IMG/VR virus record: IMGVR_UViG_3300046714_000065
Coordinates: 2,436-66,435 of that record
Strand: one strand, 5' to 3'
Length of the DNA stretch: 64,000 nucleotides
DNA from: a virus
Every line of letters begins with the position of its first letter. The first letter of the stretch is position 1. The translations under genes were made by a program, and so were the position numbers. Below the pieces are notes generated by a model. It had not been told where the DNA came from and did no database searches. It was given only the letters and a program-made list of their open reading frames with translations. Of this stretch, positions 18,687 through 62,657 are shown piece by piece.

Positions 18687-18710
18687 AACAAAGGGCCGAA
18701 GCCCCTTGTT
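18687..18710 (-). terminator. hairpin/intrinsic terminator after the Tas gene
   Basis: AACAAGGGGC-TTCG-GCCCTTTGTT directly after the stop codon (UUCG tetraloop). Confidence 0.65.
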
Positions 18711-19579
18711 TAAGTGCCAGTGTGGTGAGTCATACCCAACTTGCCAATCGAGTACTCATCGTGAACTTCAAGACCTTCAATGCGTCTCCAGTTCAGGTAG
18801 AGATCAACCAGGAACCGCTTTATCATATAGCGGATAGCCATACGGTGACGGTGGAGCTTGGTCTTCTCCTTGTGAGCTGGATGATTCTCCAGTCTGTTTT
18901 TGTAGTTGTAGTACGAGTCCTTGTAAGGCGACTCCTTCACCTTGAGGAAGCATGTCCCCAAGACGTACAACTTGGTCTTCAAGAATGGGTTGAATGTGAT
19001 GCCAACCGTCTCCTTGATCTCACCCTCCTTGTTGGTGTAGGACTTGGGAACTCGATGTTCCTTGATCCGACTACGGCCCTTGTTGTCTTCAGTAACAACG
19101 TCGTATCCAGCAAGCTTCCACAAGCTAGATGGGTAGTTGGCCTTAGTGATGTCGATCTCACTCAGGATAACTGCCGACATGGCTGGACCACAGCCCTTGA
19201 CTTTCAGCAGGAACTCCGTGTAGATCGGGTATTCCATGAGGATCTGCTCTACACGTTTGAAGTGAGTAGCTTCTTGATCTTCCAAGCTAACGTACTGAGC
19301 CAACAAGCAAAGCTCAGTGTAGGAGGAGATCACCTCATCTCCCTTGAAGGTAGCCTGCTTGGGGAAGACCTTCACCCCATCAGTCAACTTCTTGTAGCGC
19401 CGACGAAGATCAACAAGGACTTCTTGCTCTTCTTCCTCCAGTTCTTCTTCTGGATGGCTAGGCGCTTGACCCAACTTGGTCTTGAAGTTCGCGACAATAC
19501 GGTTTCCCGTTTGAATGCGAAGCTTTTGAAGATCATACGCACCACGAACCATAATGCGTACGTTGCTACTTGGTTCCAT
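18710..19579 (-). CDS. TIGR-associated Nop-domain protein, TasA-like (IS110-related RNA-binding fold, no RuvC/HNH)
   Basis: N-terminal coiled coil (YDLQKLRIQTGNRI), VKGCGPAMSAVILSEID..K...PSSLWKLAG (IS110/Nop helix-hairpin), FNPFLKTKL, and Y...K.RL...H.HRMAIRYMIKRFL.DL; adjacent to a 36-nt dual-repeat array. Confidence 0.85.
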   Translation of the reverse strand: MEPSSNVRIMVRGAYDLQKLRIQTGNRIVANFKTKLGQAPSHPEEELEEEEQEVLVDLRRRYKKLTDGVKVFPKQATFKGDEVISSYTELCLLAQYVSLEDQEATHFKRVEQILMEYPIYTEFLLKVKGCGPAMSAVILSEIDITKANYPSSLWKLAGYDVVTEDNKGRSRIKEHRVPKSYTNKEGEIKETVGITFNPFLKTKLYVLGTCFLKVKESPYKDSYYNYKNRLENHPAHKEKTKLHRHRMAIRYMIKRFLVDLYLNWRRIEGLEVHDEYSIGKLGMTHHTGT

Positions 19580-22816: not shown

Positions 22817-22987
22817 GGTAAATCTCCTAAGGGTTAAGTTGAATTCAGACCATTTAAACACTCATTCAGAATGCTTAAGTGGTCCCACCATATTTCAGAT
22901 GGGTTCCTTTTTCGGGGTGCTACCCAGGTTATACAAAGGAATAACCAGACCAACATAGTACAAACAGTTCTACATAAAGATCTCTCT

Positions 22988-23012
22988 TCATATAAGATGG
23001 GTATATTTGCGC
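22988..23012 (-). promoter_or_regulatory. putative phage promoter, copy 1 (GCGCA-N7-CCATCTTATATGA)
   Basis: Third copy of the motif, at the head of the early region. Confidence 0.6.
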
Positions 23013-23204
23013 GTGAGTTTCGACCCAATTTTCACTTGGCGGAAACGGAAGCTGAACCTTGCCCCGTTAGCTGTAGGACTCTATGTGCAAAGTACCGCCG
23101 AAGAATTTTCCGTGGTCCGTTTTGTTGCCACGATTTTTCGGCTGTCACTTCTATCAACCCTTTTCTCTACAATTTCTAAATTACAAACTGTACAGAAAAA
23201 GATT

Positions 23205-26800: not shown

Positions 26801-27545
26801 TGTAGGTATAGATATGACCCCATAAAGGATCAGTCGATAAACCTAATGTATAAGCTAAACCCTGTGTTACTAGCATCTGAACTGGTGCAGCAGGATTGCC
26901 TACTGAATCCCAGTCAGCTGGAATTAAACCATCAGGCGGCAAGTCTGTAGGTACTTTACCTAGGCCAAAAGCACCAATGATAACAGATGACTGGCCTGCA
27001 TCACCTTGCTCACCTTGAACACCTTGATCTCCTTGAGGCCCTTGTTCTCCAGTCTCACCTTGGATACCTTGTATACCCTGAATACCTTGAGGGCCAATAG
27101 GGCCTATCTCACCCTGAATACCTTGTGGTCCAATAGGGCCAGTCTCGCCCTGAATACCTTGTGGACCCATTGGACCTGTAGGGCCAACTATGCCTTGTAT
27201 ACCTTGTATACCTTGATCACCCTTATCTCCTTTTTCACCTTGTATACCTTGAATACCTTGGATACCTTGTGGGCCAACTGGCCCTATCTCACCTTGTATA
27301 CCTTGATCACCCTTATCTCCTTTTTCACCTTGTATACCTTGAATACCTTGGATACCTTGGATACCTTGAGGCCCTTGCGCCCCTACTGTTTCCATTCTGA
27401 TAGTGTAATCACCATTATCATCTACAAATAATTTATATTCTAATGCTGATGTGCTAACATTATAAGCTTCAAAGTCAGTACCTGATACACTGCTCTTACC
27501 AGGTATAAGCTTATTTGCTTTAGGGAATTGAGGTGCTTTACTCAT
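23805..27545 (-). CDS. tail fibre with collagen-like repeats and C-terminal intramolecular chaperone (peptidase S74)
   Basis: Long G-X-Y runs; SDERTK...IAQDVQ.ILP.AV...Y..IIPLLV.AVKEL coiled-coil end. Confidence 0.88.
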
Positions 27546-27598
27546 ATTCTTCCTTTACAATCAAGTGAATGTAGCGTAGTTTTAATCATCATCTTAAC

Positions 27599-30500
27599 CT
27601 AAGTTAGGTAAGCTACTTCAACCTGATAGTAAGCCAGTTCACCTGATACGTTAGTCACGCTTATATAAGGATAGTGGCCATTAACACCAAAGGCTACTGA
27701 ACCACCAACAACACTACCTGCGAATTGGGTCATTAATATGGCATCGCCATTCCAGGCTACAGAGTAGATAGCCATTCCTGTTACTGAATGATTAAAGCAG
27801 TCTGATGATAGCGTTACTATATAGAATCTGGTATGATCATTAGCATCTGCCTCGGGAAAGCTACCCATAGTTAGGGCATAATTACCTACTGCGGACTGAG
27901 ATCCGGATATTCTAGAACCTCTACGCCTGCCTGGTAGTATAGCGTTTCCAGCTACGTGTAATGTAGCTTGAGGTGCAGTAGTACCAATACCTACATTACC
28001 ATTAGCAGTAATCTGCATTCTTTCTATATTACCTGTAGCAAATGCGATAGGTGTTGCAGTCTCGGTATCTATAACTAATGCATTAGGTGGTCCTGGCAGC
28101 CTATCCCCTGCTGCACTATTTAAACCAATATGAGAGATACCACCACCGTTGGCAAAACGGTTATATACTGCACCAGCAGGGTTAGCTGTTCTAGTGTGTC
28201 TTATATGCGTTTCAGCATCATAATCTATAGTTAGTGGCCCAGTTGGTGCAGCTGCTCCAATACCTACGAAACCTGCAGAATTAACTACAAATTGATTAAC
28301 CCAAGTAGTGGGGGTTACACCATCTGCCGATACACCTTGTCTTATAACAAAGGAGTTACCATCAGGGCTTACAGTATTAGCAGGTGGGCCATTGTAGCCA
28401 CCCCCACGCTTCTCAATTACTACACCCCAGAACGAGCGTAAGTGTAAGTCACCAGCATAATTAGCTACAATGCCCATTGCACCTAAGCCAATAGTCGCAT
28501 TGTTTACTTGAGCTGGAGTAAGACCTGGCGCCATAGCCTCAAAAGCAACACCATTAAACGGGCCTGCGGTAGAAGTATTAGGCGCCGATGTAACTGAGAG
28601 GGCTCTAGCAGCGCTTGTAGAACCTATTGTTACAGCGCCATTAGTAGCAATACGCATCTTTTCAGTTATACCGCCATCTGGACCTGTAAAGAAAACTAGT
28701 GGAGAGCCATTAAAAGAATCAAGAGCCATTAAGTTACCAGCTACGTCATAATGAAAAGCACCACGACGTAATCCAGCATCGTCTACTATACTAAATAAAG
28801 CACCTGATGATTTGGCTTTTATCTCAAGATTAGTCCAACCTGCAGAAAAGTTGTTAGGTGTGCAATTAATACCTACATTACCCTCAGCAGTAATCTGCAT
28901 ACGTTCAGGTGCTTGAAATTGTGCTCCAGGAGTTAATCCGCCTAATGCAAAGAATTTAATAAGACCAGCACTACAATCAATGCCGCTGTATGCTGTGGCA
29001 TTACCATCTGCTTGATGGAGGCCAGTGCCATAATACGTTGCGCCGGATTGTATTGCTATACCGCCATTAGTTACAAATTGGCCTATGTATCCCTTAGCAG
29101 TACCAGGATCGCCCTCTAGAGTAATCGCATTATTAAGTGAGCCCCAGTTATACCAATTAGTTAGATAGATAGATGCTCTAGTACCGCCTTGGACGTTTAA
29201 ACGTGCATTATCTGTGCTTACACCGATTAACACATTTCCAGAAGGATTAATACGCATCCTTTCACCGCTATCATTATCCCAAGCGTTTATAAACACTAAG
29301 CTAGAGCCATAATCTTCATCCCCAATTCTACTAAACTCTGCTCTTAATCCTGCATGAGCAACGTTAGCACCAAAAACTTGGATAGAAGACATTAAGATAG
29401 ATCTGCTAGGCGGTGTAACACCTGCACCTGGATAGTTATTCGTAATTAATATGTTACCATTAGCAAGGCTTAATAGTTCAGTAGGGCTATTAAGACCAAT
29501 ACCTAATTTACCAGCTAAGTAGTTATCAGCTGTGCCATTCATGTACAGGTTCCAACGTCCTGTAGCTGCTGCTAAAGCACCATAGAAGCCATAATTGTAG
29601 GTTGCACCAGTTAAAGTTGAATTAGCAAAGAAACCATACTGGCTACCTATAGACGATCCAGCACCTAGCGCTAATTGTGTAGCAAAATAATGGTAAGCAA
29701 CATTTGTATTAAAGGTAGCAGCTGCAGTACGTAGACTGCTATAGTAGAGTATATAAGAACTTGTTGAATCTGGTTGTAATGTACCATAATTATAAATACC
29801 CACACTATCAATACCACCAGTAACAGGCCTATTAACGGCTAAGGTAGCATAAGCTAAAGTGTAAGGCATACCAATGTTGCCTGCAGGGCCAATCTGTAAT
29901 GCTAAGTTAGGTGATGCAGCGCCTACTGATGTAGTATAAAAGTATAAGCCACCAGGTATGGATCCAGCAGCAGGTGCACCACCTACATAACCTGTTATAC
30001 GAGCAGCTTCTTTCATCTGCGTACCATCAGTGCCATTAAATGAGATATGACCTAGGTGATCATTAACAGCAACTGCAGTCATAGTACCAACAGCAGCACC
30101 ACGAGATTTACCTAAGAAAATGGTAGGAGCATGTACATCAGCACTAAATCTATTAAATGATTGGGAGATAGCTGAAGCACCATTTAATTGTAGAGCTGAA
30201 GTATATGTTGCAGCAAATATTTCATTAGTTACTGATGTAATAGAGTTTATTAAAAGTTTACCAGCAATATAGTTATCAGCTGTACCTGCCATGTATAGGT
30301 TCCAGCGACCTGCTGCATTAGCTAAACCACTCCAGAAACCGTAATTATTAGACGCACTAGTCATTGTAGACTGTACAAAGAAAGCGTATTGATTAGTTAT
30401 AGTAGAACCAGCACCAGGTGCAGCAGGTGATGCGATAAAGTGTGTTAGTCCTGTTAAATTAAATGCAGTAGCAGCTATAGTTGTAACACCACTGTAGTAA

Positions 30501-32350
30501 CCATGGGCTGCAGCAGTTACATCTGGTTGTACTAGACCAACGTTAGTTACACCATAAGATGTTGTAGCACCTGTGAAAGACTTAGATATGCGTAGGGTTT
30601 GACCAACAACAGTACCGATACCAATAGCAACATTACCATCACTATTAATTACCATTCTAGTAGTAACGCCATTATTACCAGCGGCATTAGTCTGAAATAG
30701 TAAAGCAGCAGGAATTGAACCAACTGCAGGAGTGTTATCTACTTGAGCTGCAATACGAGCAGCTTCTCTAAATTGAGTGCCATCTGAACCATTAAAAGAG
30801 AGGTTACCTATAAAATCATTAAGTGCTAAAACTACTTGTTCACCTACGGTAGTACCTCTAGACTTACCAAGAAATATAGCAGAGCCTGATGTATTAGCAT
30901 TGTAGTAAGCTGTACCAATGCTGCTTAAAGCTAAACTTGTAGCTAATACCTGTAGCCTAGCAGCATAGCCACCAGTACCATACGCGAATAACTCAGGTAT
31001 ACTAGTACCTATCAAGAAGTTAGTTGTAGTAATGCGAGATTGTTCAACTGCATTTACCGAAGATGTTATTGCTGCAGTACCTAAGAAACGAAGATCTGTG
31101 GTAGTACCCTGTATATAGCTCTTCCTTACACCGTTTATACCTAAGGCAATCATGGTATCACTAGCCGCATTAATACTAAGTATACGTCTGCTAGGCGACG
31201 CACTAAGTGGGATAGTGCTACCAATACTCAAGTCATCCATTAGGGATAAACCAGCAGCACTCGGTTTATATAGAAAATTAGCATTCGTAACTAAATCTTT
31301 AGTTGCATCAATAAATACTACAGCATCTGTAACACCTGATGGCAAGTTACCTGTAGTACCCGCTGGTCCTTGAATACCCTCAGGCCCTTGTATACCTTGT
31401 GGACCCACTGGACCTTCTACACCTTGTGGGCCTGATGGGCCTTGTGGACCTTCTACACCTTGTGGGCCTGATGGGCCTGTAGCACCAGCTTCACCTTGAG
31501 GACCAACAATACTACCAGCATCTACCCATTCATCACCATTAGGACCCTCCTCTAAGAATACAAAGATATGCCCCCATAGAGGATCTGTATCCAAACCTAG
31601 CGAGTAAACTAAACCTTGTGAATTAAGCACTTGTACTGCAACAGCAGGATTACCGGGGCTATCCCAGTCTACAGGTATAAGACCATCCGCTGGTAACTCA
31701 GCAGGTGTTCTTGTGAGACCGAAAGAACCGATTAGAGCTGCTGTTCTACCTGCTGGTCCTACATCACCTTCTGGTCCTTGTGGCCCTTCTGAACCAGGTG
31801 GACCTGTTAAGCCTGCTGGCCCTGTTGTGCCTTGAATACCCTGAATACCTTGGGGGCCTGCTGGACCTTCTAAACCTTGTGGACCTGCTGGACCTGGTAC
31901 TCCAGTAGCACCTATAGGGCCAATAGGTCCAGTAGCACCTGTAGGACCAATAGGGCCTACTATACCTTGATCACCCTGTTCACCTTGGATACCTTCTACA
32001 CCTTGTGGACCTACTGGGCCTTGTATACCTTGTATACCTTGTGGCCCTATCGGACCTACTTCACCTTGTATACCTTGTGGCCCTATTGGACCTACTTCAC
32101 CTTGTATACCTTGTGGCCCTATTGGACCTACTTCACCTTGTATACCTTGAATACCCTGGATACCTTGAATACCCTGAATACCTTGCTCACCTTGTATACC
32201 AGTATCACCCATAGGACCTTGTGGTCCAATATTAGCTAGTGTAATAGTGTAATGACCATTCTCTACGAATAGCGAAACGGTTCGCTTACCAGTTGTTATA
32301 CCGGTAGCCATATCACACCACCAATAAGGTTGGACTAAATAAGAATTCAA
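27599..32350 (-). CDS. second long tail fibre with collagen-like repeats (likely start at MATGITT, about 32311)
   Basis: G-X-Y runs; repeated ERMRI...GNVGIGT beta-repeat motifs; about 250-aa internal duplication. Confidence 0.85.
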
Positions 32351-49544: not shown

Positions 49545-50162
49545 TTATGCAACAGGATCTTCTGCAGTAGCAGCAACCGTGTAAGCACCATAAACCTTAG
49601 AGTTCATGGTGATAGCAATGGTCGCCTGGTTAGCATCAGTCAGATTAGGCGTCACAAGCAGTGAGTCAATCTTACCAACGAAGTACCAAATAGTGTTTTC
49701 AACCTGACCAAGACCAGTGGCATTAGAGCCCCACAGCGGAGGAGGGGTATTAAGCAGTGCAAAGCGAAATGTGCCTTGCTTACCAGTGCCAATAAGACCA
49801 CCCAGTTTAGCAGTGGTAGCCCAGTCAGTTGCAACGTAATTGAGCGTAATCTCCATAGAAGGAGCATCAGCTTGACCTTGAATCTGCAGAGAAGTAGACT
49901 GACCGTAAGTTGGGACGTTAACAATGTTAGGCGGAGTGCCGATAGCCGGGAAAGTACGCACATTATGAATGCGTACAAAGGTACCAACAGCTCCAACACC
50001 ACCAACGGATGCAATTTCAGTTGCAAACAGCGCATTAAACGCCGTTTCCAGAGCTGCAGGCGGCAAAGTAAGGCTTGGCGGAGGTGCTGCGCCTGCTGCA
50101 TCAAATGCAACAGACATGTCAGAGAACATACCTGCGCCAATAGAATTGATGTGGCTCATCAA
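49545..50162 (-). CDS. major tail (tube) protein
   Basis: VR.FP.IGTPPNIVNVP.YG..TS.QIQGQADAP.MEIT.NY; position; strongly biased codon usage. Confidence 0.85.
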   Translation of the reverse strand: MMSHINSIGAGMFSDMSVAFDAAGAAPPPSLTLPPAALETAFNALFATEIASVGGVGAVGTFVRIHNVRTFPAIGTPPNIVNVPTYGQSTSLQIQGQADAPSMEITLNYVATDWATTAKLGGLIGTGKQGTFRFALLNTPPPLWGSNATGLGQVENTIWYFVGKIDSLLVTPNLTDANQATIAITMNSKVYGAYTVAATAEDPVA

Positions 50163-50620: not shown

Positions 50621-51042
50621 GCTGTACTCTCACTAAGTTCTATGGTAACTGAATACCCATTGTTGATAGCAGGATTAAGGAGCTTGTACTCATTAGTTCT
50701 AATCCTAACCTTTGTATACACACTAGGAACTAGCATGTCTATGTCGCTAAAGTCTTCGTAGTTGAATATAATTTTGGTAATTACTGTATTATCTTCTCTT
50801 TTAACTTTAGTCTCTACACCTAAGATAGTACGAACAAGCTCCTCTCCGAAGACAGGAAGCCCAGTCGTATAGTCAAACGAATCTGCTGATTTACCTATAA
50901 ACATAATTGGGGTCTTAAGATCACCTAACATAGCGAAGGCTTTCTTGACATTAGCTTTAACCATATTTCTCATAACGTTCTCCTTAATTAGCTCGCCACC
51001 AAGCACCTGGAGGCCTACCAGAGGTTGCCATACCATTCTCAT
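50617..51042 (-). CDS. head closure protein (likely start at MRNMV, about 50973)
   Basis: Synteny between the adaptor and terminator genes. Confidence 0.55.
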   Translation of the reverse strand: MRMVWQPLVGLQVLGGELIKENVMRNMVKANVKKAFAMLGDLKTPIMFIGKSADSFDYTTGLPVFGEELVRTILGVETKVKREDNTVITKIIFNYEDFSDIDMLVPSVYTKVRIRTNEYKLLNPAINNGYSVTIELSESTA

Positions 51043-51496
51043 ACCGTAGAGGATCGATTAGACCAGAGACGGTACTAGAGAGAGCTGGTACTGCAGCAGC
51101 ACCTGATTGTAGACCTTCTAACTCTATAACATCAACCTTAATACGATCAGGAGACCCAGAAGCATCTAGCAGACCATCGTTGTTCAACATATGGTATGCA
51201 TACTCCATATTAGCTGTAGTAATTCTTTTAGGTACTGCTGTTCCATCAAGCTTTACTATTTCATTATATAAAGGCTCAAAATAAGAACCTATCCGTGGAA
51301 AAGCGAGGGATTGAGACTTGTCTGCAATAACACCTATCCACCGAGTGAGGTTCAATTGCTGAGCAGCTGTAATAAGAGCTTGAGCCTTAGTTCCATCATC
51401 AGCTTCAGACCAGGCAGCTACATTAACTCTATCAGCAAAATAGAGATTTGCCTCATCTAAGGTGACATAGGAGTTTACACCCACTGTTAAAGCCAT
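50984..51496 (-). CDS. head-tail adaptor (DnaT-like phage family)
   Basis: NSYVTLDEA..YF..R, ALI.A...L...W.G......Q.LAFPR. Confidence 0.8.
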   Translation of the reverse strand: MALTVGVNSYVTLDEANLYFADRVNVAAWSEADDGTKAQALITAAQQLNLTRWIGVIADKSQSLAFPRIGSYFEPLYNEIVKLDGTAVPKRITTANMEYAYHMLNNDGLLDASGSPDRIKVDVIELEGLQSGAAAVPALSSTVSGLIDPLRYENGMATSGRPPGAWWRAN

Positions 51497-51527: not shown

Positions 51528-52718
51528 TTAACTGTGGAAGATAGGGAGAATGCCCAGCGACAGGACAGAAGTAGCCTTACGCTCGAATGCACCCTTAGTG
51601 GTGGCATCAATCGGAGCACCAGCCAGAGTAGTCATATTATCAGCACCATGACCAACTTCCGTCCAAGCAGTAGTACGCACGAAGGCATCTTCATTGCCGA
51701 ACCAGTTATAGCCACGCGGATGCAGGATATAACCCCAGCGATACCAGATATCAGTAGTACCACCACCATGATAGGAGGCAGCATTACGCTGGATTTCAAC
51801 AGGGATAGGCACCGACAGCTCTTCCATGATAACACTGTTAGGCAGGATAATCATCGAGGTCTTAGGACCAACGATATCCACACCAGCACCACCATTAATA
51901 CTCGTAAGCTCAGCAGCACTAAACGAGAGATTAGTACGGGAAGGAATCAGACGGAACTTGCCATTAAGAATGGTACTAAACTCGATATTACCTTCAGTAA
52001 CACGGTCAGTATCAACCATGTTAGCAGCACGCAAGCTAGCCAACACTTGCGGAGTAACGGTCAGATAAGCAAACGGCGGCTCATAATCCTTCCAACCCAT
52101 GCCAAGAGCATCGAGGAAGAATTGTGCACGAGCAGCACCTTGCACAGCTGCAGTGGAATCCATGATGATCTTATTCAGACCCAGGTCCACATAGAAGCCA
52201 TAAGCTGGGTTTTCAGGATCATTGTCAAAGGTTTGACCACCCAGACCAACAGGGAAGCCCTTGCCACCGTTAGCAGCACCAATCACTGCTTCAGAAACAG
52301 CAACACCCTTCAACACTGCAACCAAAGAGTCGTTCTGATCTTGAGACTTGGTCTCAGAGAAGTCCTTGCCGATCTTGGCCAAGCCATCTTCTTGAGAGAC
52401 AACAGTCTGCATATTAACCTGCATAGCGCCATGCGTACGGACAGTCTTGACGTATTTCGCCATGTCCGTATCAACGCCAGTACGCAGACCGTCAGTCGGA
52501 TCGACCAACGATGCAACGTTGATAACCGGCTTCAGAGGCTTCTTCCAACGAAGCTGACCAATAAAGGTCTCTGTAGATTTATCAATTTGTGCTTCAGCAC
52601 CAGTAATGCCAGTACCCAAGTACTTCTTGGCATTAGTATAGGCTTCATCAGTATAGGCTGCAATTGATTCTTGCAGGACCCATTCTTCTGCGCCTGGAAT
52701 GTCTTTACGTGCACCCAT
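51528..52718 (-). CDS. major capsid protein
   Basis: 396 aa, following the scaffold gene; VEIQRNA....GGG...IWYRWGYILHP.GY.W; biased codon usage. Confidence 0.88.
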   Translation of the reverse strand: MGARKDIPGAEEWVLQESIAAYTDEAYTNAKKYLGTGITGAEAQIDKSTETFIGQLRWKKPLKPVINVASLVDPTDGLRTGVDTDMAKYVKTVRTHGAMQVNMQTVVSQEDGLAKIGKDFSETKSQDQNDSLVAVLKGVAVSEAVIGAANGGKGFPVGLGGQTFDNDPENPAYGFYVDLGLNKIIMDSTAAVQGAARAQFFLDALGMGWKDYEPPFAYLTVTPQVLASLRAANMVDTDRVTEGNIEFSTILNGKFRLIPSRTNLSFSAAELTSINGGAGVDIVGPKTSMIILPNSVIMEELSVPIPVEIQRNAASYHGGGTTDIWYRWGYILHPRGYNWFGNEDAFVRTTAWTEVGHGADNMTTLAGAPIDATTKGAFERKATSVLSLGILPIFHS

Positions 52719-52731
52719 TGCGATTCCTTAA

Positions 52732-53478
52732 TTACTTACGTGTTGGTAGTTTACCCTCCGCAGCCATCTTCATGACATCAGCTTGTGACATCTTAAAGAG
52801 GGATTTGGGAGTACCGCCTCCATTAACACCAGGCCTGTTATTACCCAGTCCAGTATTAACTTCTGGTTCAAAGAGGAAAGCGTTAGCCTCATCTTTGGCG
52901 AAAGTAGCCACAAAATCATTCAGCTTAACACCAGTCCTATGTACCCATTCACCCTTGTCATTCCTTACTAGTTGATCGCTAATTTCTTTAAAAGCCATAT
53001 TAGAAGCCTTTACACTCCTAAACTTGTATTCCTTTAATTTCTCCTTTACTTCTGAGTCACGTGTAGCTTCTGTTAATTTGGACTTGAGCTCTGTATTCTC
53101 GAGTTCTAGTTTAGTGTATTTATCTGTAACTTCAGCTAGTTGAAGATCGAATGCTTCCTTATGCTTCCCAGCAGCGGATAGTGCATCCAGTTCTTCTTTG
53201 CGCTTCTTTTTATCAATTTCTTCAAGCTTCTTTAATGCATCATCTCGAGAGGTATAAGCGCTATCAAGCTTAGTCTTAATATCTTTAATGCTTTCTTTTA
53301 CTTTATCTTCAACTAATTTAGCGATAAGATCTTTATCTTCTGCTTTCAGATTAGCTAGTGGATCAGCTGGGTCTTCTTTCTTGGGTGGATCCTCTTTCTT
53401 AGAAGGATCAGGATTGTTAGGATCAGGGTTCTTGGGATCACCAGTACTACCGGGATCTGCTGGATTGTTTGCAGGCAT
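52732..53478 (-). CDS. head scaffolding protein
   Basis: Pro/Asp-rich N-terminus, coiled coil, FLF..G..Gly-rich linker and short C-terminal helix. Confidence 0.8.
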   Translation of the reverse strand: MPANNPADPGSTGDPKNPDPNNPDPSKKEDPPKKEDPADPLANLKAEDKDLIAKLVEDKVKESIKDIKTKLDSAYTSRDDALKKLEEIDKKKRKEELDALSAAGKHKEAFDLQLAEVTDKYTKLELENTELKSKLTEATRDSEVKEKLKEYKFRSVKASNMAFKEISDQLVRNDKGEWVHRTGVKLNDFVATFAKDEANAFLFEPEVNTGLGNNRPGVNGGGTPKSLFKMSQADVMKMAAEGKLPTRK

Positions 53479-53527: not shown

Positions 53528-55414
53528 TTATCCAACTCCGTAGAAGCCCTCATTAGACTTCCAAAATTCCTTAGGAACTTCCTTCAGGATATCTGATGCT
53601 TTTAAGATGTCACTCTCAGTTAGAACTTTATTACCAATACGGCTCTTCCCTGCTACAGGAATGATACCCTTCTCAATAGCTTCTGCTAGGAATCTATCGT
53701 AAGCTTCTTTAGGTAGACCTCGTTCCCTTAGTAAATCTAAAGTCTTTTTAACTGAATTGGCGTCTAGTACTCCAGCATAAATAGTTCTAAGTGCTTCTTT
53801 AGCCTTTAGCATATCTGCTGCATTTGTCATAAATGCATCATGAATAGTAGTGGCACCTATATTGTTTTTCTTACCCCATAATACAAACTGTTTAACTAAG
53901 ACAGCATCGTTACTGTGATTACCGTTAACGGCAAATGCTGTTCTTGCTCCAGTAGAATCTGCTATATCATTTATTTTACCGTCTTTATTAGTAAGCTCTT
54001 CAAACCATGTAGGATCTGTTTTCTGATCTACTTGAACAATATTGGTAATAATGTTCCCATCCTTGTCTTTATAGTAAAGACGTTCTTCATAACGCTGAGT
54101 GTATACTTGTTCCAATACCTTATTATCAAAGTTAACCCAAGGTACTTGTGTCCAGTTCTTACGTCCACCTTTAGCTGGCTCACCAAATACACCTAGCTTT
54201 ATATCCTGGTATATATCACCAAAAGATAACTTGAATCCAAACTTCTTGCCAGTAGGTCTATAATCAGGGCTTCTAACACCTAGCAATATTTCAGCAATAG
54301 TGCTATTAGGGTTAAAGCCAGGTATTGCCTTAAGTACATTTTCAAATAAAGGTATATTAGAGTCTATACCTAGTATCCTACCTAGATACTTATTAATCTT
54401 GTATCCACCTTTATATACACCAAAAGCTTTCTTCTTTATTAATCCTGTCCAATCAAATTCAGCCTCAGCAGGCTTAGCTGTCTCTAAGAATTCTTGAGCT
54501 ACTCTACCAAAGAACTTAGTAAAGTCATTAAGAATAGGAACACGCTCTTCCATCTTCTTAGTCATGATCTTACCAATAACAGCAAAGTCTTGAGGAGTAA
54601 TAACTTCAGCGTAGTCTCTACTAAGCTTCTCAACAAAATCTTTACTTTTAGGATCAAGCCACCACAGCTCATCCATTAGCTCAGCATCTGGTGATATACC
54701 TTTGTCAAAGATATCCTTAACTTGTTTACGTAAGCCCATAAGGTCATCAGCTGTCTCAGGATCCCATCGCTTGACTTTAGCAGCTCTAGCAGAGATCTCA
54801 CTAAGAACAGCATCACGCTCTTTAGTACTTACAACAAGTATAGTGCTATCCTTACCTAATGCTTTAGCTAACTTACGTTCTACATTCAATGATGCAGTTC
54901 TTTGGCCAGCACCATATAGTGTAACCATGTTATGCATCTTACTAGCCTTACGAAGATCTTTAAGTGATATGTTTAGTCTCTTATTTAGCTCTTTAAATTC
55001 ATGATCATCATATGTTGCAGCAGCTACTTCGTCATAGAGTCGCCTCTTTTGATTAGTAGGTACTACATTACTAAGCTCAGCTAGTTGTTTATTCTTAGTA
55101 GTCAATGCTATAATCTGAGCACCTGATGAGGATGCATCTTGCTCTAATGCTACATCAATCATGTAGTTATCTAAGTGTTTAAGATTATCCTCAGAATAAG
55201 GATTTTTAACATTCATAGGCTTAAGCTCTAGCTTAGAGACCTCTTTATCTAGCTCTTTATTTAATTCATCTACTAAGTCTTCTGAGTTAGTAATAGTCTT
55301 GGTCAAGCCTGCTTTTCTAGAAGCTATATCAGCTGCTTGTTTATTGGTCTTACCAAAGTAGATACTATTAGCATCTTTAATTACTGTATCCTCACCAAAC
55401 CTAATAGCTTTCAA
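53528..55414 (-). CDS. C-terminal part of a second T7-like RNA polymerase (motifs A, B, C)
   Basis: LEQDASSSGAQI (A), RKASKMHNMVTLYG (B), NGNHSNDA and TIHDAF (C). Confidence 0.88.
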   Translation of the reverse strand: MKAIRFGEDTVIKDANSIYFGKTNKQAADIASRKAGLTKTITNSEDLVDELNKELDKEVSKLELKPMNVKNPYSEDNLKHLDNYMIDVALEQDASSSGAQIIALTTKNKQLAELSNVVPTNQKRRLYDEVAAATYDDHEFKELNKRLNISLKDLRKASKMHNMVTLYGAGQRTASLNVERKLAKALGKDSTILVVSTKERDAVLSEISARAAKVKRWDPETADDLMGLRKQVKDIFDKGISPDAELMDELWWLDPKSKDFVEKLSRDYAEVITPQDFAVIGKIMTKKMEERVPILNDFTKFFGRVAQEFLETAKPAEAEFDWTGLIKKKAFGVYKGGYKINKYLGRILGIDSNIPLFENVLKAIPGFNPNSTIAEILLGVRSPDYRPTGKKFGFKLSFGDIYQDIKLGVFGEPAKGGRKNWTQVPWVNFDNKVLEQVYTQRYEERLYYKDKDGNIITNIVQVDQKTDPTWFEELTNKDGKINDIADSTGARTAFAVNGNHSNDAVLVKQFVLWGKKNNIGATTIHDAFMTNAADMLKAKEALRTIYAGVLDANSVKKTLDLLRERGLPKEAYDRFLAEAIEKGIIPVAGKSRIGNKVLTESDILKASDILKEVPKEFWKSNEGFYGVG

Positions 55415-58400
55415 AGCGCGTTATCAGGTTTAAGGTAAGACGTCTTTAAATGCTCATCTAGCAATTCTCCAAGCTCTTCAACTACCTGTGTAGTGATATA
55501 CTTACGAGTATTACCTTTAGAGCGTGCTATAAACTTCTCTTTATTCTCTGCTATCTTTGCAGTGGATAAAGGTGCACCTGTATCGTGATCAAATGTCTTA
55601 TAGGTAGCTCTTTCATACCTAGTCTTAGTAAGCTCTACATCAGTAGTATGCAACCACTTTAAGGCATTACTAGCATCTGATTCGGATATCTTACCAGTCT
55701 TAGCAAGCCTTATTAGCTCTGCTTGTGACTTAATAATTTCACTTGGAGTACCTGCATAATTAGCTACTGCTTTATTCTCAACACCTAGCATTCTAGCAAG
55801 ACCTGCAACGTCTACACGTTCATCCATTAAAGCTTGTGTTACATTAGCAATATGCCTACCTCTAGGTATTCTTAGATACTCATCTATCTTAGCTACTTCT
55901 AATGCAAACCTTAGGAACTTACCTTGATCTTCTGGATCAATCTCTAACATCATATGATGATCTAGTATGAATCTAATATCATTAGGCTTATTACGCCTAA
56001 TAGCTTTACCTATCTCTACTAAGTCATTCCTATACTTCTCAAATATCTTCACTCTACCTGTTTGCGATAAGCCATTAAATTGACCTTCAAACGTATCTGA
56101 TAAACCACCTAAGAAGCCACCTACCTGGTCTACAATGTTATGATAACCATCTTGACCTAGAGCCTTAGCCTTAGGGCTATTTAGGAACGGTCTAAATGTT
56201 TCACCTGACTGTGGGCCAATAAAGCCAGAGTCATAGAAACGACCACGGTGATCAATAAATGCATGATTGCTAAATGCCATATCTTTAGACTTAAAGTATT
56301 CCATCATTTTAAATCGCTCATAGCTATCACTACGACCTGATATATACTTCTTATAGCCATTTAGGTCTTCATATAACTTAGCATTACCACGATCATCTCT
56401 AAAGTTAAGCATATTATCAACAAAGCTATGAAACTCATTATCTACTTTATACTGTGACTGGCTATACCAATTCATAGCATCAGCCATATTCTCATCAATT
56501 AGTTCTGTTGGCAGATTAACAAATGATGAGGATGAAGTAATAGGTATTCTAGTATCATAATAGAATCCTGCCTTATTCTTAATAAAGTACGTCTTGTAAC
56601 CTGGCCTAACAAACATCTGATTCTTTAGTTCATCATTAACACCTATACGATAGCCTACGTCAATGGCTCTATTAAGATATGAATAACGCTTGATTCGTTT
56701 ATCTCTGATGATAATATTCTGACTGAAGGTGTCATAGTATTGGCCGAAATACTGGCCAGACATCCTACTACGCATTCTTCTTTTCTTAACCCCAAATGTT
56801 TCAAGCTCATAGAAGCCTGATTCCATTGCTCTATCCAATAAGTATACGCCAGAGTCATACCACTCCTTCTTAGAGCCACGCATATTAGCCATTGTAAAGA
56901 GATCTCTACCTAAGCTAACAGCAAGTTGATCACGATCAGGAGCATTATCTAGAGCTAGCTTCTTAGCAAACTTAACATAGAAATTATCTAAGGCTACATC
57001 ACTCATTCTAGATTCACCTGTGACTGTATACCTTAACTTTAGAGGTATACCCTTATTAATCCAAGGCTTAAGCTCCCAAGCTATTGTTGGTAGCTTTCTA
57101 ACTTCCCATAAGTTACGCTCAATAATATTATCATGAAAGCTTTTAGCTAGGTCTTCTAGCTGTGTAGCACCAAGGATAGGGTCTAAGAATGCCTCTTGCT
57201 TTATCTTATAAAAGAAATCAGCATTGTTACGTAAATTAGTTTCTATATATTCGGATACGTTAGTTAAGCTATGATTCATTTCAGTATTAAGCACAGCCTT
57301 AAGATTTAGCCAAGGCTTACTATCATTCTTCCTGAAACGTTCAAATACTACACGAATATTATCAGTAACAACAGATGTCTCATTAATACCTATCTTACTA
57401 GTTAGCTCATCTTTAACTTGCAGTATGAAAGCCTTATCCTTATCAGTTAGTACTTCAGAATCCTCTACTAACCTAACAGCTCGCTCATTAGCAGCTTTAT
57501 TAGGAGCATAGATTCTAGCATCTTCACGACGCTTAGTAATTGGATTAAATACTAGCTGCTCTTCAGTAGGAGTAGCTTGTAATACTCTGTTCTTAGTACC
57601 TTTCTTAACATGTGGAAGTATACCACGGTAGTTAGTTAAGCTAAGCTGACCGTTAAGATCACCTGATTGTAGTTTATAGTACTCTACAAGATTAGTCATT
57701 GCCTCAGGCTTATTAATTAACTCATCTGGTGATGTAAAGCCTAAGTTCAATGAATCTAGCCTTTCTTTAGCTAGCTCAAATGTTCTGGATGTACCTTCAA
57801 CAGATGCACCCATTGTATTAGCTGTACCCTCTTCACCTGTTAGCATCTTAAGCTCTCTCAAGCCTATTGATGCACCTTTAGGTGTAGAGAACTTATCAAC
57901 AAGTAATTGACCTTGTTGAAATAACCTTAGCTTCTGTACATCACCTAAATGTACTAGCTGTACATTAGCAGGTTGTACCCTAAGCCAATCATTATAGCTA
58001 AGCTTCTCAAATGTATTACCTGTAAAGGTATGAGCAGCAGCTATATCATACTTCTCAATTTCAGCTGCACTTAACTGAGCTATATTCTGATTGCGTACTG
58101 CCTTAACAGCATCTAGATTTCTAAGCTTATCCCATGACTTAGGCACAGGCAATGTAGTAGACCTACAATAAAAATGCTGAGGAGGTCTATGTGATATATC
58201 TGATATTGGAAATACTCTACCATCAAGGTGTGTACATATCAAAGTAGTCCTACTGTCAAGTATAGAGATATACTGATAGCCACCAAGATAAGCAGAGTTA
58301 GCAGTATATACGGCATGATCTACCTGATTGTATACGCTAGTAGTACTAGTAACAACTAGACCTGTAGCATGTGACCTAGTAAGCTTAAACGTCTTCATAA

Positions 58401-58887
58401 CTTCACGAATAGTATCTGCTTCCTTAGCACCTTTAGATAAGCCTAACCTAATAGTCTGTTCTATTCTCATACGCTCATTATCAGTAAGCGTTTCCCACAT
58501 TCCTGCTAAATTCTGATTCTTATAAAGAGGTGTCTCTAACACTATCTCCTTAGCTATATAGCGAGGAGGTGCTTCTGGCCTAATATAATTATTAAATGAT
58601 CTATTTAGGTTATTCATAGTACTACCTACAGTATCATTACCTAGATCTATGAGGTTACCTGCTGTAAGCTGATAAGCCTCTTTACTAAACCTGGCTATCT
58701 CTGCATCAAGCATAGGATTAATAGGCTTAATGCTATTCCAACCAAATTGTTCAAGAGCCTTCTGTACATTAACCTGGTGATCATCAATAACTACACTGAC
58801 TTTACCATCTAACCTAGCAGTATACAGCCTTATAAGAGCATCTCTATTTATTTTTGCGTCACCTATGTTAGTCATTGCATCTTTCAT
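55411..58887 (-). CDS. MuF/SPP1-gp7 head morphogenesis domain fused to the N-terminal part of a T7-like RNA polymerase
   Basis: YISILDSRTTLICTHLDG....PPQHFYCRS (MuF), followed later by FIDHRGRFYDSGFIGPQSGETFRPFL (DxxGR region). Confidence 0.88.
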   Translation of the reverse strand: MKDAMTNIGDAKINRDALIRLYTARLDGKVSVVIDDHQVNVQKALEQFGWNSIKPINPMLDAEIARFSKEAYQLTAGNLIDLGNDTVGSTMNNLNRSFNNYIRPEAPPRYIAKEIVLETPLYKNQNLAGMWETLTDNERMRIEQTIRLGLSKGAKEADTIREVMKTFKLTRSHATGLVVTSTTSVYNQVDHAVYTANSAYLGGYQYISILDSRTTLICTHLDGRVFPISDISHRPPQHFYCRSTTLPVPKSWDKLRNLDAVKAVRNQNIAQLSAAEIEKYDIAAAHTFTGNTFEKLSYNDWLRVQPANVQLVHLGDVQKLRLFQQGQLLVDKFSTPKGASIGLRELKMLTGEEGTANTMGASVEGTSRTFELAKERLDSLNLGFTSPDELINKPEAMTNLVEYYKLQSGDLNGQLSLTNYRGILPHVKKGTKNRVLQATPTEEQLVFNPITKRREDARIYAPNKAANERAVRLVEDSEVLTDKDKAFILQVKDELTSKIGINETSVVTDNIRVVFERFRKNDSKPWLNLKAVLNTEMNHSLTNVSEYIETNLRNNADFFYKIKQEAFLDPILGATQLEDLAKSFHDNIIERNLWEVRKLPTIAWELKPWINKGIPLKLRYTVTGESRMSDVALDNFYVKFAKKLALDNAPDRDQLAVSLGRDLFTMANMRGSKKEWYDSGVYLLDRAMESGFYELETFGVKKRRMRSRMSGQYFGQYYDTFSQNIIIRDKRIKRYSYLNRAIDVGYRIGVNDELKNQMFVRPGYKTYFIKNKAGFYYDTRIPITSSSSFVNLPTELIDENMADAMNWYSQSQYKVDNEFHSFVDNMLNFRDDRGNAKLYEDLNGYKKYISGRSDSYERFKMMEYFKSKDMAFSNHAFIDHRGRFYDSGFIGPQSGETFRPFLNSPKAKALGQDGYHNIVDQVGGFLGGLSDTFEGQFNGLSQTGRVKIFEKYRNDLVEIGKAIRRNKPNDIRFILDHHMMLEIDPEDQGKFLRFALEVAKIDEYLRIPRGRHIANVTQALMDERVDVAGLARMLGVENKAVANYAGTPSEIIKSQAELIRLAKTGKISESDASNALKWLHTTDVELTKTRYERATYKTFDHDTGAPLSTAKIAENKEKFIARSKGNTRKYITTQVVEELGELLDEHLKTSYLKPDNAL

Positions 58888-58896: not shown

Positions 58897-60492
58897 TTAT
58901 GCTGCTGGTTTAGCCTGAGGTTCCTTAACTTCGTTCTGTTGCTTAACTAGCTTAGTTACATTATTAGCGTAGCTCATACCTTGTGCAACTTGATTAATGT
59001 TAGGTTGAGTAAGTTCATCTTCATCAATCTCTTTCTTACCTTCCTTATCATCATAATCGCTAGGCAGCAGATCATTGCCTTTAAGCAAGCTGATCCATGC
59101 AGTGCGAGGTATAAGATTCTTCTCATAGATCTCAGTCATCAGCCTCAGCCAATCAGCACCTAATGGGATTGGATCAAAGTCAGCACTAAGAGTAAAGAGA
59201 ATGTCACCAGGCACTAGTTGCAGATTATATCTACGATTAATCAGATAGGTAATAATAGCTGACATAGTAGTGCTAACCTTAGTATTAAGGCTACCTAGCT
59301 GAGCTGTCTGTGATGCATTACGTAATTGCAATGCTACTCCAGATTGATCAGTCTCAGGTGTAAGCATACGTACACCAAGCTTAGCAATCTCATCAAGAGC
59401 TGATTTAATAGCTGCTTCTAGATCTGACAGTGCTTCTACAGGTGTAGACAGTACACCAATAGTATCACCAGTACGAAGCTTAATCCATGTACCTAAACCT
59501 TGATTAACAATACTATCAAAGTCAGTCTGCTGCATATCACTAGCAATCCAAGGCGTATAGGTAGATGCGCCATAGAGTAAGTGATTACGTCTACTAGTCT
59601 TATTATATAATGCTGCTTCTTTATCAATCAATGGTAATAGCATAGGGTCAATAGGCTCTATGTTACCATTAAGTGGCCATGCGGGAATCTTATCCAGAGG
59701 CTTACCAAATGCTTGAGGTGTAATAGTATCAACCAGTTGAGGTGATGCTACAATCTTAGGTGTCACTACAACACCAGCAACTGCTTTAGGATCAGTACCA
59801 TCAGTAGGTGTCTCAAATACTCTAATCTGATACTTGTTATCAATAATCTCATGTACCCAGATAGTATCAACATATACTGGATGTGTCTCTAATTCATCTA
59901 CATACTTCTCAACTGAACCTTTGATAACTACCTTAGATAACACATTATTGCCATTAACATTATTCACTTTCCAGTTGATAATGTTCTCAGCATTCCAGAT
60001 AACTGGATAAGGCTTAACCTCTTTACGCTGATCAGGTGTTAGCTTATCATAAGCTTCAGTAGTGATATTAGGATAATCTACATATACCCATGCCCTACTA
60101 GTCTGCACTTCTTCATATAGCACTTCATCTAAGAAGCCCATAATAGAGTTGCCATCAGCACTAATAGCTTGGCTAATCCATTCCTTAGCCTCATCAGGTA
60201 CATTCTCTTGGTAGTCTATTTGTGGAGGCTTACGTAATAGCCCACCTACAAGTAGCTTACTGAATTGAGCATTAATGCCAGGTAGCTCAGCTTCTCTTTT
60301 AAAGAAGTTATACTGATCCTGAGACATGCTAGGTGAGAATGGAATAAGTAAGTTACTTTGAGCAGTAACTAACATGTCATGCTCTTTTACATATTGCTCA
60401 CCATGTATAACAGCTCTACACTTAATCCATGTATCAAATAAGCTCTCATATTGTGGATTAGGATCTTGTAGCTGCTTAGATGCGTACATCAT
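58897..60492 (-). CDS. portal protein (DUF4055-like)
   Basis: Follows TerL; W..CRAV..GE..VK, RAWVYVDYP, PYPV...AENIINW. Confidence 0.85.
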   Translation of the reverse strand: MMYASKQLQDPNPQYESLFDTWIKCRAVIHGEQYVKEHDMLVTAQSNLLIPFSPSMSQDQYNFFKREAELPGINAQFSKLLVGGLLRKPPQIDYQENVPDEAKEWISQAISADGNSIMGFLDEVLYEEVQTSRAWVYVDYPNITTEAYDKLTPDQRKEVKPYPVIWNAENIINWKVNNVNGNNVLSKVVIKGSVEKYVDELETHPVYVDTIWVHEIIDNKYQIRVFETPTDGTDPKAVAGVVVTPKIVASPQLVDTITPQAFGKPLDKIPAWPLNGNIEPIDPMLLPLIDKEAALYNKTSRRNHLLYGASTYTPWIASDMQQTDFDSIVNQGLGTWIKLRTGDTIGVLSTPVEALSDLEAAIKSALDEIAKLGVRMLTPETDQSGVALQLRNASQTAQLGSLNTKVSTTMSAIITYLINRRYNLQLVPGDILFTLSADFDPIPLGADWLRLMTEIYEKNLIPRTAWISLLKGNDLLPSDYDDKEGKKEIDEDELTQPNINQVAQGMSYANNVTKLVKQQNEVKEPQAKPAA

Positions 60493-61112: not shown

Positions 61113-62657
61113 TTAGAAGTTAAAGCCTCTAGTTGCAACTCTTGCTCCAGTCATAGGCCAGAGCCAACTAAACATGTATCTAATACCATCACTAAAGTGC
61201 TCTATATCCATAGATTTATCGATAGTAGCTGTATCAGGATTCTTATCTAACCACTGTGTCTTAGTAACTGAATCAATAACTGGCTTACAATCAGCTAATA
61301 TGAATGCATAACGCTTACCAGGCTTCTTAGTGATAGGATTATCTGCTGTTTTAAATCTAGCATTAGTGGCTTTAACACTGTCGCTTATGCTGGGATGATT
61401 CTTCATTGCTCTTACATCAAAGCCAAAGCCTTCAAGTATAGTTAAGTCATTCTGCCCTATTGGAGCATTAGTATGACCAGCCTTACCTGATGGATCAGGA
61501 TAGCAATGTATCTGTCTAGCAGATCTATGCTCATTGACATACTTCTTATAGATAGATTGACCTAATGCATCTGTATTATAGCTACCTTGCAGATAGCCTA
61601 TGCAACATGCATATTGACCACGTACTACCCATACACCACTACATTGCTTACGTATGTTAAAGTCTATTGATATATGTAGATCTTCATTTGGTGCTGCAAC
61701 AACACTACCAGCAGGTAAGACATTATACTGCTTATTAAAGTTATAGAATACGTTAGCACCGGTATCTTGGAACATAGCCTTGTATTCTCTATTAAAGTTA
61801 ATCTGATCCATTGTATCAGCAGCTTTAGCAATTTCATCTTGATCGAGATAAGGCGATTTAGTATAGTCATAATGATAACTCTTCCAGCCAGGAATAACTC
61901 CACCATTCTCATATAACTTAAAGAATGTATCTTCAGTCTTAGGAGAGGCTATTGACAATAACCGCCCTGGGTTAATCTCAATAGATTCACCTGTAGCTTT
62001 GAGTATCGCTTCTTTAAGTATCCTCACCATCTTAGGTGACCATCTAGTATTAATGCATGGCATAATAATAGCTTCAATAGCATCAAGCTTCTCTTTCTCC
62101 TTCATATTAAATGTAGGTAATTCATCCACTATAACAAAGTAATAACCTTTACCACGCATACGCTCAATAGCATCACCTGAGATAAGCCTTAATTCAGTCT
62201 GATTATGAAACCTAAATACACCTGCATCACGGCTAGCTTTATCAGCACTACCTTCTAAGCCAAATTGATAAGCTAGTAATGGGTAATAGATATCTACAGC
62301 TTGATCATATGTAGGGCATACTATACCTACCTTCTTATTAGGTATCCATGCAGGTAACTGATTAAGCTCATCAACAGCAGTAACAGCACATGCAGCAGCT
62401 AATACTGTCTTACCAAAGCCACGACTAGCAGCTACAGTAGCAAATCTAATATCTCGTTTAAGGAACATATCACTGAATACAATACTTTGACCTGCATGTA
62501 AACTAGTAGAGCTAGGCTGCTCATTAAAGCTATCCATATTAGCACTACTTAAATCTAGATAAGATGTATCATCAGCTATCTTTAGTAGCTCAGTCATCTG
62601 TACTACATCTAATACACCACTCTCAATGATCTCTTCAAGCTCTGCTTCAGTGTACAT
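61113..62657 (-). CDS. terL: terminase large subunit
   Basis: Walker A ASRGFGKT, Walker B VIVDE, FNREY.A.F, nuclease IDFN, YPDPSG and EHFSDGIRY. Confidence 0.93.
   Translation of the reverse strand: MYTEAELEEIIESGVLDVVQMTELLKIADDTSYLDLSSANMDSFNEQPSSTSLHAGQSIVFSDMFLKRDIRFATVAASRGFGKTVLAAACAVTAVDELNQLPAWIPNKKVGIVCPTYDQAVDIYYPLLAYQFGLEGSADKASRDAGVFRFHNQTELRLISGDAIERMRGKGYYFVIVDELPTFNMKEKEKLDAIEAIIMPCINTRWSPKMVRILKEAILKATGESIEINPGRLLSIASPKTEDTFFKLYENGGVIPGWKSYHYDYTKSPYLDQDEIAKAADTMDQINFNREYKAMFQDTGANVFYNFNKQYNVLPAGSVVAAPNEDLHISIDFNIRKQCSGVWVVRGQYACCIGYLQGSYNTDALGQSIYKKYVNEHRSARQIHCYPDPSGKAGHTNAPIGQNDLTILEGFGFDVRAMKNHPSISDSVKATNARFKTADNPITKKPGKRYAFILADCKPVIDSVTKTQWLDKNPDTATIDKSMDIEHFSDGIRYMFSWLWPMTGARVATRGFNF

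Follow-up and report, generated by a model that had tools for sequence, protein, structure and literature searches.

To our knowledge, RNA polymerases (RNAPs) that are delivered with the virion occur in only a few phage groups, namely the N4-like, crAss-like and phiKZ/AR9-like phages and phage P23-45. Jumbo phages of the PBS1/AR9 and PhiR1-37 types carry their own virion RNAP, and in T7 and N4 the genome is reported to be pulled into the cell by transcription. Each of the virion RNAPs described earlier changed the understanding of the infection cycle of its group. Head proteins of the SPP1-gp7/MuF type, for their part, bind the portal, and each capsid contains one or two copies of them. We report on a locus in which these two kinds of protein meet. 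It lies in a stretch of 64,000 nucleotides (the window; positions 2,436 to 66,435 of the IMG/VR record IMGVR_UViG_3300046714_000065), which is part of a one-contig virus record of 66,435 bases with a CheckV completeness of 95%. Between the portal and scaffold genes of this uncultured phage, a MuF head protein is joined to a T7-type single-subunit RNAP (MuF-RNAP), which is split over two reading frames in the window. The observation that MuF and a T7-type RNAP are joined in the head operon was confirmed, with matches far beyond chance. Judged by architecture and context, it is fairly probable that the locus encodes a portal-tethered, virion-delivered RNAP that evolved independently of that of N4.

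The interval singled out in the initial annotation consists of exactly two abutting open reading frames (ORFs) on the minus strand, and each motif quoted there was found in one or the other (Table 1). ORF1 starts 9 nt past the portal stop codon, which overlaps the AAGGAG Shine-Dalgarno sequence of ORF1. It comprises a MuF/gp7 module (approximately residues 1-350), the N-terminal half of the RNAP (approximately residues 350-1005) and part of an insert (residues 1006-1158). The MuF module is recognized by PF04233 Phage_Mu_F in Pfam (E 1.5e-11; 45.5 bits vs a cut-off of 29.6), by TIGR01641 phageSPP1_gp7 in NCBIfam (E 5.4e-17; 62.1 bits vs a cut-off of 39.65), and by the head morphogenesis family phrog_241 in PHROGs (E 1.4e-47), and it contains the MuF motifs LDSRT (residue 210) and PPQHFYCR (residue 235). 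The gene lies directly downstream of the portal gene, a position that serves as a criterion for MuF genes in the available part of Jamet et al. (2017; PMC5576092). With the portal upstream and the scaffold and major head protein downstream, the domain occupies the canonical post-portal slot, as had been proposed. ORF2 matches PF00940 RNA_pol (E 5.4e-14; 52.3 bits vs a cut-off of 22) and the RNA polymerase family phrog_414 (E 4e-17).

From its sequence, the RNAP part appears to be a divergent but complete T7-type single-subunit enzyme of ~1200 aa, with predicted polymerase activity. A profile built from 68 family sequences matches T7 RNAP at E 2.5e-14 in a search of the PDB, and the matching pieces are colinear with T7 residues 397-463 (T/DxxGR), 527-578 (motif A) and 696-842 (through motif C). 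The same profile matches mitochondrial RNAPs (1e-9 to 1e-7) and the N4 RNAPII chain 6dt7_B (3.2e-5); it has no match to the N4 virion RNAP (vRNAP) in the PDB at E <= 1. A phmmer search of the PDB with ORF1 or ORF2 alone found no solved polymerase, because each single ORF is too divergent. Motifs T/DxxGR, A, B and C occur in order and are conserved: E91, D93, N116, R125, K159, Y167, G168, D503, and D526 (ORF2 numbering) are invariant in 68/68 aligned sequences, and in the DHRGR motif of ORF1 the same alignment shows no variation at R883 and a conservation of at least 90% at D879 and R881. The DHRGR motif aligns with DWRGRVY of T7 and with DFRARLY of the phage's own second RNAP (RNAP2, described below), DASSSG of motif A with DGSCSG of T7, and HDA of motif C with IHDSF of T7. 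The T7-type assignment made in the initial annotation thus stands on a profile match above the cut-off, invariant catalytic residues and the match of the family profile to T7 RNAP. The ~530 aa ahead of T/DxxGR have no recognizable match except a weak language-model lead to RPOL_N (score 0.82); the language-model look-alikes scored 0.82-0.90 and are leads only.

Within the family, the fusion is the norm. A search with ORF1 residues 400-1000 recovered 386 related protein clusters at E <= 1e-3. Approximately 75 of the 120 relatives listed are 1450-1800 aa long, and most of these have both Pfam domains. In IMG/VR, 352 contigs encode a relative; 80 of these contigs were fetched, and the gene, complete in 49 of them, is in one frame in every case (49/49). 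The initial annotation had described MuF as running on into about 1500 aa. This holds for the relatives, where a single chain of ~1540 aa is the norm, and does not hold for the window, where the chain is split at 55411-55414; that the annotation speaks of two co-expressed ORFs indicates that the split had been recognized. An exhaustive phmmer search with ORF2 against 1.84 billion representatives gave 110 matches; all of the long ones have the polymerase ~1000 residues from the N-terminus, and none of the 110 is a protein of T7 or N4 size. Phage_Mu_F is kept in 11/11 distant full-length representatives (20-40% identity; E <= 1e-5, residues ~140-250). Across 66 sequences, identity to a reference rises and falls together in the MuF and RNAP parts (r = 0.90), as expected if the two are inherited as one unit. 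The gene always lies within the head-assembly operon, and the order terminase large subunit, portal, MuF-RNAP, scaffold, and major head protein is kept in phage DSS3_VP1 and in the records L007, L008, and G006. The architecture of the MuF-RNAP is old and conserved, the fusion being kept down to ~25% identity.

The only members in the phage database are EBPR siphovirus 1 and the roseophages DSS3_VP1 and DSS3_PM1 (Naomviridae). Members are labeled "head protein," "minor head protein-like protein" or "head morphogenesis" in databases; the polymerase is hidden because annotation pipelines take the name "minor capsid protein" from the first 250 residues. Among 185,579 bacterial species genomes we found three loci, all on contigs of metagenome-assembled genomes. 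This near-absence from bacterial genomes points to lytic phages, and the family does not look prophage-borne.

The closest relative of the window protein, P0003, is one chain of 1556 aa. ORF1 residues 1-1005 are 82% identical to P0003, ORF2 residues 77-628 are 83% identical to its residues 1005-1556, and the two alignments leave just five P0003 residues between them. It follows that the window has a lineage-specific, dispensable-looking insert of 229 aa. It holds a stretch resembling a helix-turn-helix, the frame break and a weak GP3_package match (E 0.052). An insert of this type is found in frame in a relative of 1801 aa (P0122, from L008), which is 56-58% identical to the window on either side of the break, and also in the fragment P0148. 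The site (reference residues 999-1005, approximately 55187-55872 in the window) is an insertion hot spot of the family, with unrelated in-frame inserts of 100-160 aa in P0038/P0043, P0092/P0116, and P0076. The P0038/P0043 insert includes an ADGLHR stretch that we presume to be reminiscent of ParB/Srx-type domains.

Relatives read ...ASGVSPKAGIYKTIEAQKRALKAIRFG... in frame across the point at which the window gene is broken. Compared with P0122 and P0148, the linker of the window is ~11 codons shorter and its frame is changed. Aligned in this way, the break reads as one of the deletion type. A homopolymer slip was rejected as the cause, given the ~11 linker codons that are missing relative to the relatives. 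Programmed frameshifting was rejected as well: there is no slippery heptamer, stops lie three codons upstream in the ORF2 frame, and the relatives differ by the ~11-codon deletion. No Shine-Dalgarno sequence precedes the TTG of ORF2, whereas sites of the AGGAG type are found at other genes of the window. Should the break be real, the RNAP would have to work as two chains, with ORF2 made via re-initiation at the overlapping TTGA.

A different interruption is seen at motif B. In EBPR siphovirus 1 (L001, 9280-10198), gp47 ends in motif B at reference residue 1092, gp49 resumes at residue 1122, and a gene for an HNH endonuclease lies between them. Of the 120 relatives listed, 32 end at reference residues 1085-1095, and a smaller second group ends near residue 1426. 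The motif B site looks like a hot spot for introns or homing endonucleases within the most conserved motif of the polymerase.

The genome also encodes RNAP2 in its replication region. RNAP2 matches phrog_414 (E 7.5e-116), T7 RNAP (1aro; E 2.4e-47) and PF00940 (E 7.5e-72), and in the phage database it is closest to the protein annotated as RNA polymerase in DSS3_VP1 (34.2% identity, E 2e-83). A second T7-like RNAP is present in both DSS3_VP1 and DSS3_PM1, and one was found in 7/9 of the relatives' records searched, including 5/6 of those rated at least 90% complete. RNAP2 and the MuF-RNAP resemble each other only distantly: hhalign gives a probability of 84.6% for the stretch from T/DxxGR to motif A, and cross-matches are weak. 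RNAP2 is presumed to be a non-virion enzyme, and an RNAP in the head operon together with one in the replication region would correspond to an N4-like two-polymerase layout. In two relatives, G007 and G008 (L089-L092), the second RNAP gene is itself divided into two or three parts that match in separate open frames; in G007, a TAA stop is present in two of these parts.

Starting from the observed domain identities, catalytic conservation, gene position, family-wide fusion and co-occurring second RNAP, we infer each step of the following mechanism. The MuF-RNAP gene would be expressed late, together with the head operon, and the MuF module would dock the protein on the portal inside the procapsid. 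At infection, the protein would exit with the DNA via the long non-contractile tail and would transcribe the first genes with no need for the host polymerase. RNAP2, made in the cell, would then take over, giving an N4-like cascade of independent origin. Injection of the RNAP is favored by the retention of the fusion to ~25% identity, with MuF present in all 11 distant representatives, by the tight co-variation of the MuF and RNAP parts, by the constant position in the head operon, and by the second, conventional RNAP in the window genome and in most of the relatives' records, which matches the N4 scheme.

Promoters were sought in the window. Sites of the sigma-70 type are no commoner than in shuffled sequences (55 vs 56.3). 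Three AAGCTG-loop-CAGCGAG elements (12578-12782, minus strand) lie in one intergenic gap of 384 nt that heads the small-gene run leading into RNAP2; the trio is non-random (0/100 shuffles reach three), with weak folds (z -2.8, -1.7, and -1.05). A conserved 20-mer element, CCATCTTATATGA... (CCATCTTATATGAGGAATCC-type), occurs three times (13295-13334, 13981-14020, and 22974-23013), each copy ~40 nt before a Shine-Dalgarno sequence and ATG, with weak hairpins (z -4.2, -1.2, and 0.07). Both elements are candidate phage promoters and serve as leads only; neither was seen upstream of RNAP2 in five relatives. The region 12000-14000, which spans small genes, has a locally raised G+C content (0.47 vs ~0.39); the product of 12836-13348 within it is visibly hydrophobic, and the conserved 20-mer precedes two small genes there.

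Several points weigh against an injected RNAP. The sequence-level premises on which the initial annotation had built this interpretation hold up, in that the MuF domain is genuine, the slot is canonical and the RNAP is T7-type, but the gene is interrupted in the window genome and ORF2 lacks a Shine-Dalgarno sequence; the window copy may be defective, or the break may be an artefact of assembly or haplotype. We found no direct evidence of packaging, ejection or activity, and the locus was found in no RNA run. Among MuF proteins, there is no checkable direct precedent for a chain of 1540-1800 aa that travels down the tail of a siphovirus. The promoter search gave no convincing class, its candidates being few, weakly folding and not conserved in the five relatives. 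No match to a second RNAP was found in G005 (98% complete) or in the partial EBPR record. Finally, a strict regular-expression count finds all six motifs in 70/104 long members, the motif B pattern having failed in 25; since the aligned residues are invariant, these misses reflect the pattern used.

The same architecture and conservation would equally be expected of a polymerase that is packaged and ejected mainly to pull in the genome by transcription, or to make replication primers as the transferred primases of polyvalent proteins do. In the available part of Iyer et al. (2017; PMC5512222), transferred primases and RNAPs figure as early life-cycle components. For gene expression, moreover, the phage has a conventional enzyme in RNAP2. 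However, RNAP2 itself needs some enzyme to transcribe it first. The location of the genes on one strand suits transcription-coupled entry but does not separate entry from early expression, and the two roles are not mutually exclusive; we consider it quite unlikely that entry or priming is the main job. The RNAP might also not be delivered as an active enzyme at all, acting only within the cell that makes it, perhaps in late transcription close to assembling heads, or being cleaved so that MuF alone is incorporated. In keeping with such a role, a protein of 175-200 kDa is bulky for a place on the portal inside the capsid, the literature texts yielded no virion proteome of a family member, and a prohead protease gene is absent from the interval between portal and scaffold. 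Yet if the protein acted in the producing cell, it would be hard to see why a family that diverges to ~25% identity has kept its polymerase joined to a portal binder, and the same genomes already have a separate RNAP gene. This reading, too, strikes us as quite improbable.

The window gene might simply be broken, as a defective variant or a mis-join of two haplotypes that yields no functional two-chain polymerase. Among the 49 complete relatives in IMG/VR none has a frame change, so that the two-ORF state is an exception in the family, and relatives with the same insert read through where the window has its shortened linker. The conserved RALKAIRFG is directly preceded by TGA and TAA in the ORF2 frame, and the missing Shine-Dalgarno sequence before ORF2 points the same way. 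The best sequencing run with the locus is a soil metagenome, which gives the habitat of the phage and is possibly the source of the window. The assembly graph branches here: contigs of this run stop at 55217-55226 and at 55421-55422, and depth in the run is 4.8 between these breaks vs 9.3 and 6.9 in the flanks. By arithmetic, ORF1 would join ORF2 in frame at codon 64 of the latter if 55227-55420 were skipped. The contig breaks, the dip in depth and the restorable frame make a second haplotype or a mis-join a live possibility, and the two-ORF state may be an artefact or a haplotype. On the other hand, an independent assembly of the run is identical to the window across the break, with the reservation that the window itself perhaps came from this sample. 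From the first codon on, ORF2 residues 1-76 are still 58% identical to P0122, and any decay would therefore be recent. Split single-subunit RNAPs can work, as in the two-chain N4 RNAPII (PDB 6dt7_B, "RNAP2," among the matches above). We regard a merely broken gene as unlikely, and retain a virion-delivered RNAP as the preferred reading.

All sizeable genes of the window are on the minus strand, and Table 1 lists the features in the direction of transcription. The label of siphovirus fits, as the stretch from the head protein to the tape measure has no ORF large enough for a sheath; the cultured relatives are likewise filed as siphoviruses, by name or family.

Table 1. Features of the MuF-RNAP locus and of the surrounding window, in window coordinates.
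Feature	Position	Strand	Remarks
Terminase large subunit	61113-62657	-	First in order in the direction of transcription
Portal, 531 aa, DUF4055-type	58897-60492	-	phrog_145, E 8.1e-62; PF13264 in relatives
ORF1, 1158 aa, ATG start	55411-58887	-	MuF, RNAP N-terminal half and first 153 aa of insert
Phage_Mu_F/SPP1 gp7 core	58153-58464	-	ORF1 aa 142-245; PF04233, TIGR01641
T/DxxGR motif DHRGR	56239-56253	-	ORF1 aa 879-883
Lineage-specific insert, 229 aa	55187-55872	-	ORF1 aa 1006-1158 and ORF2 aa 1-76; absent from P0003
Frame break	55411-55414	-	TGA of ORF1 overlaps TTG opening ORF2, -1 frame
ORF2, 628 aa, TTG start	53528-55414	-	Last 76 aa of insert, then predicted RNAP palm and fingers with motifs A, B, C
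Motif A DASSSG	55121-55138	-	ORF2 aa 93-98; predicted catalytic Asp D93
Motif B RKASKMHNMVTLYG	54911-54952	-	ORF2 aa 155-168
Motif C HDA	53834-53842	-	ORF2 aa 525-527; predicted catalytic Asp D526
Head scaffolding protein	52732-53478	-	phrog_206, E 1.2e-10
Major head protein	51528-52718	-	phrog_247, E 2.2e-12
Head-tail adaptor	50984-51496	-	Downstream of major head protein
Major tail protein	49545-50162	-	Downstream of head-tail adaptor
Tape measure, 2796 aa	39893-48283	-	Downstream of major tail protein
J-like tail protein and two collagen-repeat fibers, then small-gene block with two tRNAs		-	Downstream of tape measure
RNAP2, 715 aa	8073-10220	-	Replication region
SSB-like protein		-	Between RNAP2 and family-A DNA polymerase in gene order
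Family-A DNA polymerase	3406-5442	-	Last in listed gene order

The tape measure is very long, implying an unusually long tail, and the two fiber genes (1583 and 1246 aa; 23805-32350) are rich in collagen-like 9-nt repeats. No terminal repeat was found on the contig of the window. In the IMG/VR record G006 (74,102 bp), the ends flagged as "direct terminal repeat" are an exact overlap of 127 bp, which we read as a circular-assembly overlap rather than as physical termini. A non-coding array of ~1.6 kb (19628-21240) has a strict period of 36 nt and stops in all six frames. Within it, TGGGTTACT occurs 33 times and GATTCACT 34 times (at most one mismatch), the two being in register and separated by variable spacers; a phrog_4285 "transposase" gene (18710-19579) adjoins the array. 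In IMG/VR the motif pair gave four single matches and is arrayed in no contig; the array may be a set of binding sites or an origin. A gene of the dCMP/cytidine deaminase family (1362-1826, minus strand; PF00383, E 1.2e-22) has ordinary deoxycytidylate deaminases as its best phage matches, and no ThyA, ThyX or YfbR-type dTMP phosphatase was found in the window genome. With ordinary matches and none of these genes, a modified genome containing deoxyuridine (dU), as in the related Naomviridae, is neither supported nor contradicted.

The MuF-RNAP fusion appears to be undescribed, and a prior description is possible: no paper describing it was found in the full-text literature, a scope that leaves out subscription journals and supplements. 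The main text of Jamet et al. (2017; PMC5576092) contains no occurrence of "polymerase," and no link between MuF and RNAP is made there or in the available main text of Iyer et al. (2017; PMC5512222), which has N4-like virion RNAPs confined to N4-like phages and prophages. "RNA polymerase," "RNAP," "MuF" and "minor head" do not occur in the main text of Rihtman et al. (2021; PMC8323127), although a polymerase domain may be listed in its supplementary annotation tables, and such terms are likewise missing from the accessible part of PMC12669031. Nor was a description of the fusion met in the accessible parts of PMC12697855, which names the dU-DNA phage groups, and of bioRxiv 10.1101/2025.10.29.685362.

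We see the chances as evenly balanced that a large global clade of lytic siphoviruses (from soil, sludge and the sea, and including the dU-DNA Naomviridae) is independent of the host RNAP from the start of infection by means of a portal-riding, MuF-anchored, tail-ejected T7-type RNAP. If true, this would be a further independent invention of the virion RNAP, and the first natural case of a MuF "delivery tag" that carries an essential enzyme, not a toxin. The MuF module would gain a demonstrable delivery function. With 352 IMG/VR contigs and 386 protein clusters, the family would add a common virion RNAP, and a compact T7-type, possibly promoter-specific polymerase would be on offer. The MuF-RNAP may explain the first transcription of the dU-substituted genomes of Naomviridae; should DSS3_VP1 rely on it, each of the dU-DNA phage groups that the available part of PMC12697855 names would have its own virion RNAP. 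The idea is directly testable because the family members DSS3_VP1 and DSS3_PM1 are cultured on Ruegeria pomeroyi DSS-3.

Compared with known systems, the RNAP shares with the T7 RNAP family (PF00940, above the Pfam cut-off) the colinear motifs T/DxxGR, A, B and C; unlike T7 RNAP, it is very divergent, fused to a head protein, and split. Within its own family, DSS3VP1_00028 of DSS3_VP1 is 28-33% identical and has LDSRT, PPLHFNCR, DSRGR, DASASG, and HDA, but is a single chain of 1463 aa. The gp47 and gp49 proteins of EBPR siphovirus 1 are 44-53% identical to the window proteins, and the gene there, unlike that of the window, is interrupted inside motif B by the HNH gene. The phage of the window differs from the DSS3 phages and EBPR siphovirus 1 in coming from soil and in carrying the 229-aa insert.

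With SPP1 gp7, the Mu F proteins and the MuF toxins, as covered in the available parts of PMC5576092 and PMC5512222, the locus shares the PF04233/TIGR01641 N-terminal domain, the post-portal slot and a variable C-terminal enzymatic cargo. The cargo is a ~1200-aa polymerase here and a small toxin in the MuF polymorphic toxins, and the lytic-looking context of this family contrasts with the temperate phages and prophages that carry such toxins, so that the locus does not group with them. The Thermus phage P23-45, also a siphovirus, delivers an RNAP as part of a structural protein of its virion and encodes a non-virion RNAP besides (bioRxiv 10.1101/2022.12.01.518664, available part). Its fused RNAP is, however, a two-barrel enzyme of the multisubunit type joined to the tape measure, whereas that of the window is a T7-type enzyme, presumably of the right-hand fold, joined to a head protein.

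The closest parallel in layout is N4. Like the RNAP of the window, gp50 of N4 (Schitoviridae) is a single-subunit RNAP encoded among late or structural genes, although carriage in the capsid is presumed here. N4, like the phage of the window, is lytic and has a second, non-virion phage RNAP alongside, and the N4-type combination of a late-operon RNAP with such a second enzyme was found in the window. The polymerases themselves are another matter. The N4 mini-vRNAP shows no detectable kinship with the family alignment (hhalign probability 0.5%), and gp50, as the initial annotation had noted, lacks MuF: Pfam gives only four N4-specific vRNAP domains (PF21894, PF21769, PF21867, and PF21624) and no match to MuF or PF00940, and none of the four domains is found in ORF1 or ORF2 at E <= 1. 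The MuF-RNAPs have 1540-1800 aa vs 3500 aa for gp50, and the phage of the window is a siphovirus with a 2796-aa tape measure, whereas N4 is a podovirus. Anchoring would differ as well, being provided by the MuF module in the window protein and by the N- and C-terminal domains of gp50 itself in N4.

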